Shown: positions 28,967 through 33,091 of the stretch, piece by piece
Numbering within the stretch: the stretch's first letter is position 1
How the letters are laid out: every line of letters starts with the position of its first letter
Origin: a bacterium
Lineage (GTDB): Bacteria > Patescibacteriota > Minisyncoccia > Moranbacterales > UBA9337
Direction: 5' to 3'
DNA: 64,000 bases
Assembly: GCA_021159185.1 (NCBI GenBank)
Contig: JAGGSH010000012.1
Span: forward strand, 1,235 to 65,234
Program-made: the position numbers and the translations under genes
The notes under the pieces: generated by a model
The model's database searches: none
Seen by the model: the letters and a program-made list of their open reading frames with translations, nothing else
What the model was told of the DNA's origin: nothing

Positions 28967-29837
28967 TTATTTATTATTCTTGCCTTTCGCTCTTTTCAAC
29001 ACCTTCACCGCCCCCCGTTTCGCGTCTACTTCCACCAAATCGCCGTCGTGCAATATTTTAGTGGCGATCTTAGTGCCAATAATACAGGGTTTTTTTTAGT
29101 TCACGGGCGATAATAGCGGCATGGCAAGTGATACCGCCTTCGTCAGTGATGATGGCTCCGGCTTTTTTGATAACAGACATATATTCCGGCGTAGTCATAT
29201 GGGCAATCAATACATTATTCTTTTTCATTTTTTTAAAATCCTGGGACCCAAGGATGATTTTTGCTACTCCTTTAGCCATTCCTTGGGAAGCAACTTCGCC
29301 TTTGATTTTTTTCAATTTACCATTAGAGAAAGCGATTATTCTTTTACTTGAATTACGACTTCTTAAAAAATGCTGAGCCTTTCCATTATTTAAAAAATTT
29401 CCTCTTTCCCGTATTTTTAATTTTTTATTTGGGTTGTATTTATTATAAAGATTAACAAACCGCTCTTCGTCTAAATAATATTTTCCGCCAACAAACTTAT
29501 TCTTAAATTTCTTCACTTCATTATAGTATTTCTCCAACACAAGAAATAGCGCATCTTTTCTGCGCCAATCTAATTCCTTACTTTCAGAATCAACCAAAAT
29601 AAAAAAATCTACGAGTTTTAGCGGTTTTTCTAAAAGATGCAATCTTCGCTCAATTGCCTCTGGAGCGATCTTTTCACAATAAATTTTTCCGACAAAGTAC
29701 AAAATCGCTCTTGCTTCATTGAGAGCCTCCCAACTAGGCTTATCGCATATCTCTTGATATCTTTTCCAAAGGTAATTCATTCTTGATTTAACCCCTCGCA
29801 AATTCATCAGATATGTATATTTTAATAGTAATCGCAT
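28967..29837 (-). pseudogene. PEP-utilising-enzyme swivel (phosphohistidine) domain protein, interrupted by a +1 A in an A8 homopolymer (29090-29097)
   Basis: The listed ORF ends ...GGITCHAAIIARELKKTLYYWH*. Removing one A from the A8 run continues the frame as ELKKPCIIGTKIATKILHDGDLVEVDAKRGAVKVLKRAKGKNNK*, which is collinear with the C-terminus of the paralogue at 30956..33091. Confidence 0.6.
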
Positions 29838-29920
29838 ATTTTATAGATTGGTAATAATGTTTAAATTAAAACCCTATTAAACTCCATTGGAGCTTTTCAA
29901 CTACGGATAATTTTACAAAG

Positions 29921-30018
29921 TCGTAATCGGCCTGCTTTGAACTATATAGAATTTCCCGTCAGCATAAGCCCATTCAATATCCTGCGGTTTTTTGTAGTGC
30001 TTTTCTATCCGCAAGCAA
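29921..30018. repeat. 98-bp perfect direct repeat, copy 1 (non-coding remnant of the PPDK_N domain end)
   Basis: Identical to 32098-32195. On the minus strand it would encode [33 protein letters not shown], in frame immediately after the stop of 30030..30953, with no start codon of its own. Confidence 0.9.
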
Positions 30019-30029
30019 GCGTTGTTCCC

Positions 30030-30953
30030 TTACGCCGATTTTTCAGTTTCTTTTTTATGTAGCTCATTGTAAAACTTTGCAAGTTCATCAATTTTTTGCA
30101 TATCTAAATATGCATCACCGCCAAGTCTTTTTTGATTATCAAATCGCATTCGTACTTGCCCAAGCTTCCCGTTTCGGTCAGTTTTCAAAACAATATCAAA
30201 TCCTTCGGATGGTTTGAAATTTCCGCCTATTTCTTCCAATGTCGCGCCATGTACTTCATTGCTGTCTTTATCTTTCCAAATTACTGTTTCAGCAAGAAAC
30301 GGTTCAATCATCCCCGTGTGGCTACCAAGTGGAAATAAGAGTCTCTGGTTTGATTTTAACTTTTCTTGCATCATTTTTATATAGTGTTTCACCAAGACAG
30401 CGAGTGAACCGGCGATTTCCTTTCTTGTATCAACCGCGGCTTTGGTCTGTAAACTCATCAGATGTTCTACTGATTTTGCGTCTGCATATTCTGACACCTT
30501 TTTCTTTTCGTTATCTGACAAATCATCAAAACTCTTACCACTTTTTAATACATCACGAATATATTCATTTGCAAAATTTTCGTGTATTTTTAAGTAGTCA
30601 AATGGCATTTCTAAAACCATTGTTTCGTAATTCAAAACATCGCGTGGCCTTGTTCTGTATAATTCATCACCTGCGATTTCTTTACCAAAAATGTGTGCTG
30701 TTTCAAGCGATCTCTGCATTTCCAGCTCTTCGCCTTCCACCTTTGTTTTTGGTCCAGCAGTTGAACCAAACGCTTTTACCGCATTAAACTCTTCGTTTAC
30801 CAAATGACTTGTTTTTGCGATTTCTTTTGTTCTCTCTCTGCCATATTCTTCAAGTGTACCATCTAGGTTTCTGTCACCATGGCGCAACACATGCAAAACA
30901 AGCTCAACATTTGCGCCTTTTTCTTTTTCAATTTCATTTTCAAATCTTTCCAT
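30030..30953 (-). CDS. histidine-phosphatase-superfamily-like protein (RHG motif), tentative
   Basis: N-terminal LVLHVLRHGDRN resembles the RHG catalytic motif of the phosphoglycerate-mutase/histidine-phosphatase branch. A later PLGSHTGMIEP could be the second catalytic His. Otherwise divergent. Confidence 0.4.
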   Translation of the reverse strand: MERFENEIEKEKGANVELVLHVLRHGDRNLDGTLEEYGRERTKEIAKTSHLVNEEFNAVKAFGSTAGPKTKVEGEELEMQRSLETAHIFGKEIAGDELYRTRPRDVLNYETMVLEMPFDYLKIHENFANEYIRDVLKSGKSFDDLSDNEKKKVSEYADAKSVEHLMSLQTKAAVDTRKEIAGSLAVLVKHYIKMMQEKLKSNQRLLFPLGSHTGMIEPFLAETVIWKDKDSNEVHGATLEEIGGNFKPSEGFDIVLKTDRNGKLGQVRMRFDNQKRLGGDAYLDMQKIDELAKFYNELHKKETEKSA

Positions 30954-30955
30954 AG

Positions 30956-33091
30956 TTATTTTTTAGATTTTTCTATGATACGCACAAAGCCCTCATTTGC
31001 ATTTACCTCAACCAAATCTCCGTCTTCCAAAACCTGCGTAGCATTTTTCGTACCAACTATGCATGGTTTTCTCAATTCGCGCGATACAATCGCTGCATGA
31101 CATATAATCCCACCCTCATCTGTGACAATTGCAGATGCTTTCTTGAGTAAGGGAATCATCTGGGGATTTGTCATGCCTGTCACCAACACATCGCCGTTCC
31201 TCACATTTGTTGTATTAGTCCATGATAAATGAGTTACAACACGACCTTTCGCAATACCAGAAAATGCGACATCGCCAATCACTTCGCTATTGTGTATTCT
31301 TTGCATCTTATCTTTCCAGTATGCGTATTGCTCGCCAGTATACAAATTCCATTCATTATTCTCTTTTACAAATACACTTCCTTTTAGTCTTTCTTTGAGT
31401 TCGTCGATGGTTATCGTTAGTTCTCCATGTAATGCTTTTTCAAATTCACTCACACGCATTGCCCCAACAATTTCCATAGGCAAATTGTGTTTTCTGGAAA
31501 CATATTTTAAGAAAATATCGTCCGTAAAAAATTTCTCTGAATCTCCATGGAGTCGCAATTTCATTTTTCCCATTTCAATAAGTCGTTCAACATATTTTTT
31601 AGTTTTAGCATCTGGTAATTTATCAAAAGAGTTATGTGTTAAAATTTCAATTAGTCTCTCTTTGGAAATTGTTTTCAGAATTTCTTGCTCTAATGCCTGT
31701 TGAAATGGCTGCTCGTAAAATCTGTATAGCTCACAAAATTTATCATTCAAAAGCATTGATTTTTTCCATTCCTCATTAAGATTTTTTTCATCCAAATGAT
31801 CTAGGCTGTAAAACTTCAAATCTTTATCTAATTTTTTTGACTCTACAAGAAATTTATGATAAAAATCATCATTTAAAAGCGAAGTGCTAATCTTATAACA
31901 TTCTTTTGCGCCTTTTGGAGATAAATATGCACGAGTAACGTCATTTTCATATAAAACAACATGATCAGCAGCACCATAAGTTTCGTTATTATTAAAAATC
32001 ATGTCTAAAAACAAAATACTGAACCCTGATACTGTAAAATGTAGTTCATAATCTTTTTCTGCATTCTCATTCTTTCTGGGTTTTGTAGTTTTGAGTGTCG
32101 TAATCGGCCTGCTTTGAACTATATAGAATTTCCCGTCAGCATAAGCCCATTCAATATCCTGCGGTTTTTTGTAGTGCTTTTCTATCCGCAAGCAAATTTC
32201 CGCTAGTTCAATAATTTGCTTTCCGGTTAATTTTTGTTTTTCTTGCTGGCTTTTTGCAACCGGAGCCCATCTTACGCCCTTCCGCAAGCATTTTGTAATC
32301 TGCTTTTTCTGTTCAGTTATGTTAATATCTATCATTGACCAATCGCGTTTATCAATAACATAAGCGTCCGGCGTGATTGATCCCGATACGATGGCTTCGC
32401 CTAGGCCCCAACCGGCTTCAATAATCATTTGATTTTTATCCTGCGTAACAGGATGAACCGTAAAAACAATGCCCGAAATTTCTGACGCGATCATTTCCTG
32501 AATAACAACCGCTACACTAACATTGGCCTTTAATAAATCTTTTTCACGGCGATAAAAAATCGCCCGCGAAGTGAATAGGGACGACCAGCATTTTTTTACA
32601 TTTTCCAATAACGTTTCTCTTGTGGTGTTTAAATAACTTTCCAGTTCTCCCGCCCAAGAGGCTACTTCGCTGTCTTCAGCGGTAGCACTGCTTCTAACAG
32701 CTGTAAAAAATTGTCCTTTTGGCTCCGCGGTTTTGAATTTTAATCTTTGAGTCTTAAGATTTAAAAACTCTGAAACTATTTCCTTCTCTAAATCTCTAGG
32801 CATTTTCGCGTCACAAATCAAATCCCGAATAACATTGGAAGCCCTGTCAACAGAATGCGTATCATTATAATTAATCTCATTAAGACGAGCTTCAATGTCT
32901 TGCGTCAAATCTGTCTCCTCAAGAAACCTGTCAAAAGCTTTGGCTAAAACAACAAATCCCGGCGGGACAGGAATTTTATTATTTACCATTTCGCCAAGCG
33001 AAGCGCCTTTGCCTCCGGCAGCCAGAATATCCTTTTTTGTAAGCTGTTTAAAACTTTTCGTAAACATAAAACTCTTAAAAATAATATTCAA
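30956..33091 (-). CDS. PEP-utilising enzyme family protein (PPDK_N ATP-grasp/pyruvate-phosphate-dikinase N-terminal domain + phosphohistidine swivel domain; PEP synthase / rifampicin-phosphotransferase-like architecture)
   Basis: N-terminus AAGGKGASLGEM...VPPGFVV..FDRFL and ...[22 protein letters not shown] (PPDK_N). C-terminus GDVLVTGMTNPQMIPLLKKASAIVTDEGGIICHAAIVSRELRKPCIVG (PEP-utilizers mobile domain with catalytic His). No C-terminal TIM-barrel domain. Confidence 0.8.
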   Translation of the reverse strand: MNIIFKSFMFTKSFKQLTKKDILAAGGKGASLGEMVNNKIPVPPGFVVLAKAFDRFLEETDLTQDIEARLNEINYNDTHSVDRASNVIRDLICDAKMPRDLEKEIVSEFLNLKTQRLKFKTAEPKGQFFTAVRSSATAEDSEVASWAGELESYLNTTRETLLENVKKCWSSLFTSRAIFYRREKDLLKANVSVAVVIQEMIASEISGIVFTVHPVTQDKNQMIIEAGWGLGEAIVSGSITPDAYVIDKRDWSMIDINITEQKKQITKCLRKGVRWAPVAKSQQEKQKLTGKQIIELAEICLRIEKHYKKPQDIEWAYADGKFYIVQSRPITTLKTTKPRKNENAEKDYELHFTVSGFSILFLDMIFNNNETYGAADHVVLYENDVTRAYLSPKGAKECYKISTSLLNDDFYHKFLVESKKLDKDLKFYSLDHLDEKNLNEEWKKSMLLNDKFCELYRFYEQPFQQALEQEILKTISKERLIEILTHNSFDKLPDAKTKKYVERLIEMGKMKLRLHGDSEKFFTDDIFLKYVSRKHNLPMEIVGAMRVSEFEKALHGELTITIDELKERLKGSVFVKENNEWNLYTGEQYAYWKDKMQRIHNSEVIGDVAFSGIAKGRVVTHLSWTNTTNVRNGDVLVTGMTNPQMIPLLKKASAIVTDEGGIICHAAIVSRELRKPCIVGTKNATQVLEDGDLVEVNANEGFVRIIEKSKK
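32098..32195. repeat. 98-bp perfect direct repeat, copy 2 (in-frame inside the CDS 30956..33091)
   Basis: Nucleotide-identical to 29921-30018. Encodes the conserved [20 protein letters not shown] motif. Confidence 0.9.

Follow-up and report, generated by a model that had tools for sequence, protein, structure and literature searches.

A perfect direct repeat in a Patescibacteria dikinase-like locus suggests that a stand-alone ATP-grasp gene captured a foreign module in frame

How did the end of one protein domain come to be present twice, letter for letter, in a single gene cluster? This question is raised by the locus at positions 28967-33091 of a 64,000-nt stretch of Moranbacterales DNA (GenBank assembly GCA_021159185.1, contig JAGGSH010000012.1), referred to here as the window. 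In this locus, a gene for a dikinase-like protein with an ATP-grasp (PPDK_N) domain and a phospho-histidine swivel domain is followed by a 307-aa gene (p307), by a short remnant of the PPDK_N end and by a second swivel gene (sw2), all of them encoded on the minus strand. An earlier note, made from the sequence alone, had seen in this arrangement a recent recombination or gene conversion between diverged paralogues. From the analysis described below, it is probable that the locus is a fresh recombination scar, in which a stand-alone ATP-grasp gene (ppdkN) captured a foreign module in frame, with duplication of the target.

Results

The direct repeat and the start-less remnant

The perfect direct repeat, previously given as 98 bp, is real and its two copies are 100% identical, but its length is 99 nt (29920-30018 = 32097-32195). 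It is the longest perfect repeat of the 64-kb window, as shown by self-BLAST. When the two regions are aligned at the nucleotide level, the identity switches on and off abruptly at both repeat ends; the borders are sharp, the flanks are unalignable, and the two swivel domains encoded downstream of the repeat have a clearly lower, imperfect identity. The first copy (R1, 32097..32195, minus strand) is in frame within the 711-aa gene and covers the final 33 codons of its PPDK_N domain. The second copy (R2, 29920-30018) follows p307: in minus-strand orientation, 11 nt (GGGAACAACGC) separate the TAA of p307 from R2, in agreement with the 33-codon, start-less remnant reported earlier behind the phosphatase stop.

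The remnant (29913..30018, minus strand) consists of the 33 repeat-encoded residues, a leucine codon (TTG) and a TAA, with the stop at 29913-29915. It has no start codon, it carries its own stop codon and it is not fused to the downstream gene; this 33-codon stub is a scar, not a gene. Together with the TTG TAA, it has the exact ending of the stand-alone PPDK_N homologues (...RPITTL-stop), and its 3' flank, TTTGTAAAATT, matches TTTGTGAAATT of the closest relative, L039. The repeat is of the resident type, with 80/99 nt identical to L039 and also to L040, versus 68/99 to the donor-like L035. Judged by these comparisons, the remnant would be the displaced native 3' end, with the native stop, of the resident ATP-grasp gene that now provides the N terminus of the 711-aa protein. 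Gene conversion between diverged paralogues does not account for these data, as the remnant has no paralogous flanks and corresponds to the native end of the resident gene itself.

A chimeric gene and its two junctions

The 711-aa open reading frame (ORF; 33091..30956, minus strand) is matched in Pfam by PPDK_N (PF01326) at residues 25-345 (E 8.9e-100) and by PEP-utilizers (PF00391) at residues 631-701 (E 7e-24), as had been predicted for the upstream protein. This longest ORF opens at a TTG at 33091, and the ATG at 33067 would give a protein of 703 aa; the latter is likely the true start, according to the ENA gene call and the stand-alone homologues.

The two parts of this protein have different closest relatives. 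For residues 1-334, the best matches are PPDK_N-only proteins from a large Patescibacteria family, mostly of ~312 aa (310-386 aa), which are 66-80% identical; the ATP-grasp part is 44-67% (roughly 55%) identical to that of three-domain module genes. All seven stand-alone homologues that were read (7/7) start with MFTK.FKQL... and finish with ...FYI[VT]QSRPITTL-stop. The resident part of the gene (32097..33067, minus strand, from the likely ATG to the end of R1), which encodes this stand-alone-type ATP-grasp domain, has 753/932 nt identical to ppdkN of L039. The middle and swivel part (30956..32096, minus strand), together with the 307-aa gene, is 77-91% identical to a two-gene module found elsewhere. 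When the 711-aa protein is compared with that of L035, the identity is 0.51, 0.67 and 0.58 in three successive ATP-grasp segments and 0.77, 0.88, 0.86 and 0.91 in the segments after the repeat; in the control pair L033-L035 the segment identity is uniform (0.78-0.95). The nucleotide identity to L035, L033 and L009 is 75-81% over 30019-32096 and stops at the repeat. The GC content drops modestly in the insert (0.356 vs 0.404).

The captured foreign segment is thus delimited to 2,078 nt (30019..32096, minus strand). It comprises the in-frame sequence for the middle and swivel domains, p307 and, at its end, 11 nt of the donor 3' untranslated region (UTR), or 14 nt with the shared TTGC. At the left junction (32086..32107, a span that brackets the junction by ~11 nt per side), the gene switches in frame from resident to donor sequence at the conserved RPITT codons. 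The last position of the repeat is 32097 (...CCGATTACGAC), and from 32096 on the sequence is donor-like (ACTCAAAACTAC...); the switch point is CCGATTACGAC|ACTCAA, being L039-like upstream and L035-like downstream, and a run of 17 nt identical to L035 (CCGATTACGACACTCAA) spans it. At the right, illegitimate junction (30015..30018), a 4-nt microhomology, TTGC, is common to the donor UTR and the resident gene. The window has ...TAAGGGAACAACGC-TTGC-TTGCGG, i.e. TAA-GGGAACAACGC-TTGC-TTGCGG, the donor-like L035 has ...TAAGGGAGCAACGC-TTGC-GCGCGC, i.e. TAA-GGGAGCAACGC-TTGC-GCGCGC (similar in L008, L033 and L038), and the resident gene has ...GAAAT-TTGC-TTGCGG.

From these two junctions and from the resident type of the repeat it follows that the 2,078 nt of foreign DNA are flanked on both sides by the terminal 95-99 nt of the resident gene, now present in duplicate. 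By sequence comparison, therefore, the 711-aa gene is a chimera of a resident ATP-grasp domain, a foreign middle domain and a foreign swivel domain. The module itself, consisting of a three-domain gene and a p307-type gene, is found in unrelated neighbourhoods in L008, L009, L010, L033, L035 and L038, and because its neighbours differ by genome (ProRS, an HTH gene, Wzy/L19, an rve integrase), it appears to move horizontally.

Domain composition of the chimeric protein

The swivel domain of the chimeric protein has the catalytic motif GGIICHAAI. The ~285 residues of the middle domain, located between PPDK_N and the swivel, have no Pfam assignment. This domain is conserved among the module genes and presumably binds the substrate. 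A profile search of the PDB with the middle and swivel domains finds the swivel only: the RPH chains (5fbs, 5hv1) are matched solely at swivel positions 258-360, and there is no PDB sequence match for the middle domain. A PEP/pyruvate TIM-barrel domain is absent, as the 711-aa protein stops ~10 residues past the swivel and has no third Pfam domain.

The protein stays under the PEP-synthase cut-offs (NCBIfam PEP_synth, 430 vs 739.75; PRK06464, 461 vs 598), so that its gene product is predicted not to be a PEP synthase. With the NCBIfam RPH model NF041857 it scores 341.5 vs a cut-off of 999, in two stretches, the best of which covers residues 13-342, i.e. the ATP-grasp domain. Of the RPH-type system proposed in the earlier note, only the domain order is retained; the score (341 vs 999) and the middle domain, which has no sequence match to the RPH structures, speak against the remainder. 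As far as can be predicted from such models, the chimeric product falls outside both the RPH and the PEP-synthase equivalogs.

The 307-aa protein

The p307 gene (30030..30953, minus strand) had been called histidine-phosphatase-like, and this assignment is borne out by the fold and by the catalytic motifs, and not by PF00300, which gives no match. The protein has the alpha/beta core fold of the histidine phosphatase superfamily, an RHG motif near its N terminus, a conserved arginine and a second histidine, as seen in this superfamily. In 33 sequences, the residues R24, H25, G26, R81 and H212 never vary and R28 hardly varies. The window protein itself has no Pfam match at E<=0.1 and no NCBIfam match, and a profile search of the PDB by sequence was negative; His_Phos_2 is matched by two of the 33 relatives, with a best E of 0.032. 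Unlike the known members of the superfamily (the branch 2 acid phosphatases, phytases and MINPP, and the branch 1 proteins PhoE and SixA), p307 lacks the HD motif and has SHTG instead; it is also cytoplasmic, with no signal peptide being evident. These features suggest that p307 forms a new and divergent branch of this superfamily, and the 307-aa 'hypothetical protein' is likely a phosphatase.

The p307 family is rare, with 309 representatives at E<=1e-3 among 1.84 billion, and no relatives were found on viral contigs. The functional link between the swivel protein and the phosphatase that had been suggested for this locus agrees with a conserved neighbourhood: a swivel domain is encoded within 2.5 kb of the p307-family gene in 19 of 25 distinct loci, and in 15 of the 25 a swivel-domain gene ends <200 nt upstream of it. 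Of the six loci without a nearby swivel, five are short contigs. It could be that p307 acts on the phosphorylated product or on the phospho-histidine itself, the latter as with SixA. We lean slightly towards a small-molecule phosphoester, as p307 shares a helical cap with the branch-2 small-molecule phosphatases.

Two further genes putatively of the histidine-phosphatase type were observed in dikinase clusters. One is in L004 (7981-8805), coding for a 274-aa protein that starts with MKGEFLFTRHSKAKYE and has an RH motif; the other, in L042 (5924-6517), codes for a 197-aa protein with a weak His_Phos_1 match. It may be a general feature of the candidate phyla radiation (CPR) that swivel proteins are paired with phosphatases of this superfamily.

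The downstream swivel gene

Downstream of the remnant, a native intergenic spacer of 75 nt (29838..29912, minus strand) separates the ppdkN stop from sw2 (28967..29837, minus strand). The ATG of sw2 at 29837 opens an ORF of 255 codons that is broken at an A8 homopolymer (29090..29097; T8 on the plus strand), as had been noted before. Removal of one A restores the conserved frame, ...ELKKPCIIGTK...KGKNNK-stop, which ends at 28967-28969. The repaired protein, of 289 aa, has a 148-aa helical N-domain, a linker and a swivel domain, which is matched by PEP-utilizers at residues 205-275 (E 5e-25, Pfam) and has the motif GGITCHAAI, so that the swivel expected in the downstream gene is indeed present. 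The 37 residues past the shift are 57% identical to the swivel of the chimeric gene and the shifted frame is stop-free for 42 codons; the A8 run is present in both contigs that cover the locus (from JGI and ENA). Because the frame after the A8 run is intact and similar to the other swivel, the frameshift could be very recent, or a sequencing error, or tolerated via slippage.

The N-domain of sw2 (29394-29837) belongs with a large family of ~150-aa proteins, to whose aligned members it is 53-66% identical. These proteins are all-helical, have no Pfam domain and occur in Patescibacteria and in one Nanoarchaeota record. In the two contexts examined (L042, 5001-5465; L044, 5001-5453), such proteins are encoded directly after PPDK_N-middle-swivel genes, and the fusion of this domain to a swivel is seen only in this window. 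Residues 105-281 of sw2 align with swivel-only proteins, for example L044_340 and L039_516. The AlphaFold2 (AF2) model of the N-domain is a helical bundle (pLDDT 90) without a specific fold match, and the N-domain is not related to the middle domain of the chimeric gene. The C-terminal 40 residues of the ~150-aa family resemble the PPDK_N end (E 0.02-0.05), which is probably spurious: the model is helical in this region, and the corresponding end segment of the ATP-grasp domain is expected to be a beta-strand.

It had also been proposed that the downstream paralogue lost its ATP-grasp domain, either by replacement with the phosphatase gene or by deletion in favour of it. There is no sign of a formerly fused ATP-grasp domain in sw2, and swivel genes without PPDK_N are usual in these clusters. 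The ATP-grasp partner of sw2 is most likely the separate upstream gene, which would have been extended rather than lost. In this way sw2 would be the resident swivel subunit of a split dikinase, redundant after the fusion, a partnership that is read from adjacency only.

A promoter-like match is present in the spacer (29865-29838), and the promoter-like sites of the region are not above the shuffled expectation; the promoter and terminator scans of the locus gave no useful excess above background.

Related clusters and other repeats

In contigs of Parcubacteria, Moranbacteria, Peregrinibacteria and DPANN, clusters are found in which one PPDK_N gene is accompanied by up to five genes of the type 'X + swivel'. 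Since such clusters hold one PPDK_N and several swivel genes, swivel genes without an ATP-grasp domain are normal and not truncated. In L012 (archaeon GW2011_AR5), L013, L018 and L020, three to five different swivel genes follow one another on a single strand; no more than one PPDK_N domain is detected, and a p307 homologue is also present. These sequences suggest a multi-paralogue phosphotransfer cluster common to bacteria and archaea.

One of the contigs with the module, L010 (Peregrinibacteria, 3,682 nt), has a perfect terminal direct repeat of 129 nt (1-129 and 3554-3682), which is a circular or tandem signature. This repeat is built of a GC-rich, hairpin-forming element without an Rfam match, and imperfect inverted sequences of ~70 nt (~150-215 vs ~3350-3420) are located around the three-domain gene and its p307-type gene. 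The L010 module may be inside a small mobile or repeated element.

The window has further repeats elsewhere. A direct repeat of ~98 nt (16970-17067 and 17472-17569, 99% identical) forms the complete intergenic leaders of rpsD (S4) and rpsM (S13) in the row rpsK-rpsM-rpsD. Each copy starts at the stop of the preceding gene, and the RNA folds better than all 200 shuffled sequences (z -4.2), with no Rfam match; this repeat is possibly a ribosomal-protein leader, or an autoregulatory element, that was duplicated. A GC-rich palindrome with a perfect centre (34170-34239; arms of 35 nt, 83% complementary, without a spacer) is located in the 436-nt spacer between parA and parB, where the surrounding sequence has 38% GC; it also has no Rfam match. 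Dispersed repeats with 79-86% identity comprise a 177-nt pair (3264-3440 and 51375-51548) and a three-copy element of ~90 nt (8924-9011, 14790-14882 and 50455-50541). In the dikinase locus itself, Rfam finds no known RNA.

Free-standing genes for '23S rRNA intervening sequence protein' (PF05635, one also matched by bAvd) are present at ~22-25 kb of the window (L001 11997-12377), by dprA and topA, and in L039 (1137-1517 and 4486-4866), between secD and secF; no rRNA or reverse transcriptase is near them.

Discussion

The repeat and both junctions, the chimeric nature of the gene, the folds and the linkage of the genes are shown by the data above; how the DNA entered, by which exact path it recombined, and what the enzyme does and on which substrate, we infer in what follows. 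In the original state, a stand-alone ppdkN gene (312 aa, ...RPITTL-stop) would have been followed 75 nt later by a separate sw2 gene, coding for a small helical domain and a swivel, the two making up a split dikinase like HpeHI or phenylphosphate synthase. Part of a foreign module with two genes, one for a three-domain dikinase-like protein and one for a protein of the histidine-phosphatase fold, would then have entered, most plausibly as transforming DNA. At one end, this piece would have been joined in frame to the resident gene, anchored by homology at the highly conserved RPITT codons; at its other end, located 14 nt behind the stop of the phosphatase gene, it would have joined illegitimately via TTGC, 99 nt upstream in the resident gene. 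As the outcome of these two joins, the last 95-99 nt of ppdkN would be duplicated, and the locus would be left with a chimeric protein of 703/711 aa, a co-transferred phosphatase gene, the orphaned native 3' end (the repeat) and a displaced sw2, now with the A8 frameshift. That the event gave a duplication rather than a deletion could be explained by a template switch or by an exchange between two sister copies.

Patescibacteria have been shown experimentally to be naturally competent (PMC10633639). Together with the presence of dprA ~5 kb from the locus, this makes natural transformation a plausible route of entry.

Homology-facilitated illegitimate recombination in natural transformation, which has been described in Acinetobacter and Streptococcus, would be the most likely mechanism, a homology-anchored junction combined with a microhomology junction being its hallmark. 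The locus would be alike in having one homologous-anchor junction and one junction with a microhomology of 3-8 nt, with foreign DNA between them. The classical cases usually delete recipient DNA, whereas here 95-99 nt are duplicated, which fits a template switch or an unequal sister exchange too.

It is possible to relate the proteins to characterized dikinases. In the chimeric enzyme, judged by its family, the ATP-grasp domain would most likely pass the beta-phosphate of ATP to the swivel histidine. The swivel would then deliver this phosphate to a substrate that the middle domain binds (X + ATP + H2O -> X-P + AMP + Pi). Its partner of the histidine-phosphatase fold would take a phosphate off the product, off a downstream intermediate or off the phospho-histidine. 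The chimeric protein resembles RPH and the PigC/RedH/HapC-type proteins, with an N-terminal ATP-grasp (PPDK_N) domain, a middle domain and a C-terminal histidine swivel having GG..HAAI, and without a TIM barrel; its mechanism is presumably the same swivelling phospho-histidine relay, as described for a three-domain dikinase (PMC4844700). It differs from RPH in being ~150 residues shorter, and its type of module is always paired with a gene of the histidine-phosphatase fold, whereas RPH is unpaired. The proposed resident state is similar to HpeHI of Rhodococcus, for which a split ATP-grasp and swivel-subunit dikinase is proven (PMC12167813), and to phenylphosphate synthase, having a separate 312-aa ATP-grasp protein (compare HpeI) beside a subunit with the swivel histidine and a further domain (compare HpeH). 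However, sw2 is much smaller (289 aa), its helical-bundle N-domain has no detectable similarity to the RIF-binding-like domains, and the host is a reduced Patescibacteria genome and not an aromatic-degrading bacterium.

Several points weigh against the proposed capture. The true donor is absent from the databases, and the closest relative has a nucleotide identity of ~80%, so that the junctions are placed by comparison with relatives. No genome was found in which ppdkN is directly followed by an sw2-like gene, i.e. an empty site, L039 and L040 carrying other genes after ppdkN, and no equally close protein with the ~150-aa domain and a swivel was seen elsewhere. Neither the middle domain (in the PDB sequence profile search) nor the N-domain of sw2 (in the AF2 fold match) resembles a known substrate-binding domain, and the protein functions at the locus are predicted ones. 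The arrangement is supported at the level of contigs and a unitig. The perfect identity of the repeat copies could also result from later homogenisation.

Among the alternatives, recurrent docking of cassettes survives best, and it is nevertheless unlikely. In this explanation, the conserved 3' end of PPDK_N is a preferred docking or attachment site, at which small, integrase-less cassettes insert and excise via flanking repeats, with the middle-swivel-phosphatase segment as cargo here and a Fic gene elsewhere; it would give the lineage exchangeable specificity modules. It draws on three independent loci with the order ppdkN ending in the repeat, cargo, repeat remnant, with the remnant being located within 4-37 nt of the cargo stop: the window (99 nt, 100% identical), L004/L014 (61 nt, 85%) and L040/L041 (73 nt, 90%, with the Fic cargo). 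In L004/L014 (Moraniibacteriota UBA9338 / ACD), the gene is followed by p306, by a 22-residue stub-stop-stop and then by a different swivel gene; in L040/L041, a stand-alone ppdkN is followed by the Fic gene and by the copy of the ppdkN end, which starts 4 nt past the Fic stop and bears damaging changes (P->Q, Y->H). In L012, 45 codons from the N terminus of PPDK_N are present as a fragment (2998-3132), other module genes have mosaic breakpoints at the same domain boundary (for example L009 vs L033/L035), and the L010 module is bracketed by the ~70-nt inverted sequences and the 129-nt terminal repeat.

The evidence against docking is of several kinds. There is no integrase, transposase or recombinase within 6 kb of the locus, where the neighbours are FolD, ParA, ParB, RelA/SpoT, TopA, the IVP protein and DprA, and the insert carries just the 3' part of a gene and p307, without a recombinase; no relatives are found on viral contigs. 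The right junction is a donor-resident microhomology join and not a conserved att core, and the lengths and borders of the remnants vary among the three loci. The changes between the L004 remnant and its own gene are mostly synonymous (8 synonymous, 2 nonsynonymous), which points to the leftover of a different functional gene and not to an att duplication. Three cases among ~17 PPDK_N loci could moreover reflect frequent homologous recombination among many paralogues. Across these loci, the conserved PPDK_N end is a site of repeated rearrangement, which could be either the most recombinogenic stretch among the paralogues or a genuine docking site. It is doubtful that the last ~30 codons of PPDK_N act as a landing pad for promoterless cassettes, with the multi-swivel, single-ATP-grasp clusters of CPR and DPANN as its long-term product.

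Direct repeats of the 3' end of a target gene flank the 2,078-nt insert, as in site-specific integrative elements (attL/attR), but there is no integrase. As in the Rhs/CDI systems with orphan C-terminal modules, there is a full gene, a partner gene, a stub of the conserved region and another module of the C-terminal type, and the repeats could mediate switching. Here, however, the stub ends in a stop of its own, separate from the next module; a recombination of the two repeat copies would bring back the split pair and not swap a domain, and there is no evidence of a toxin or of immunity at this locus.

Less likely still is an older insertion, after which the two repeat copies were kept identical by ongoing intrachromosomal gene conversion. 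Direct repeats 2 kb apart are able to convert each other, and a remnant at the equivalent position is present in the diverged relative L004, whose p306 is 71% identical. Against this, the closer relatives of the module, L033 and L035 (81-86%), have neither a remnant nor a second swivel gene, for which reason the events in L004 and in the window look independent; the downstream genes also differ, the 360-aa protein of L004 being not related to the N-domain of sw2. In the window, the tract of identity stops exactly at the two junctions and does not fade into diverged homologous flanks, as a tract of conversion from one paralogue to another would. The tail of the frameshifted sw2 has not decayed, which argues for a recent event; the earlier note had concluded this from the repeat.

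It is very unlikely that the arrangement is an assembly artefact, in which a shared k-mer or a collapsed repeat chained two co-occurring strains or organisms into an order that does not exist in any real molecule. The sequence is derived from a metagenome, the repeat length of 99 nt is near k or k-1 of common assemblers, and short-read graphs alone look alike for the tandem arrangement and for an empty site together with a circle of 2,177 bp. However, the JGI contig 3300016457 and the ENA contig ERZ23499350, which come from different pipelines, are base-for-base identical over 12.9 kb around the locus, the read sets being perhaps not independent. A Logan unitig (k=31, SRR14000037) corresponds exactly to 29989-32126, i.e. 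the inter-repeat segment flanked on either side by k-1 = 30 nt of repeat sequence, and because it extends 30 nt into the repeat on each side, continuous 31-mers span both junctions (p307 UTR to repeat and repeat to middle domain). Since the parental sequence types share merely 4 nt at the junction of the p307 UTR and the repeat, which is far too short for a misjoin, a de Bruijn graph could not invent it; a misjoin is rejected on this junction and on the unitig. The fusion is also in frame, precisely at the domain boundary used by native three-domain genes.

Two other routes were considered. Campbell-type integration of a donor circle with its own copy of the repeat is unlikely, as it predicts one donor-type repeat copy and no junction between donor UTR and resident sequence; both copies are of the resident type, the donor UTR is joined directly to the resident sequence, and a complete later homogenisation would be needed. 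A diversity-generating retroelement is rejected, as the repeat copies are 100% identical and no reverse transcriptase domain occurs among the neighbouring genes.

Domain fusions are usually inferred long after they occurred; at this locus the junctions, the duplicated target, the displaced gene end and the redundant partner are still legible. If it arose by the capture proposed here, the locus provides a clean natural example of the conversion of a split enzyme into a single chain by the capture of foreign DNA. The kinds of enzyme and the recombination outcome are known, and their combination in this window is a variant in a poorly understood gene system of CPR and DPANN. This system is widespread in these groups: one ATP-grasp protein is present with several swivel-histidine proteins, linked to a rare, Pfam-invisible branch of apparent histidine phosphatases. 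If the cassettes did dock at the PPDK_N end, reduced genomes would gain a recombination-based exchange of the specificity module of a phosphotransfer enzyme. The substrates, if known, could reveal a phosphorylation/dephosphorylation pathway that is specific to ultra-small symbiotic microbes.

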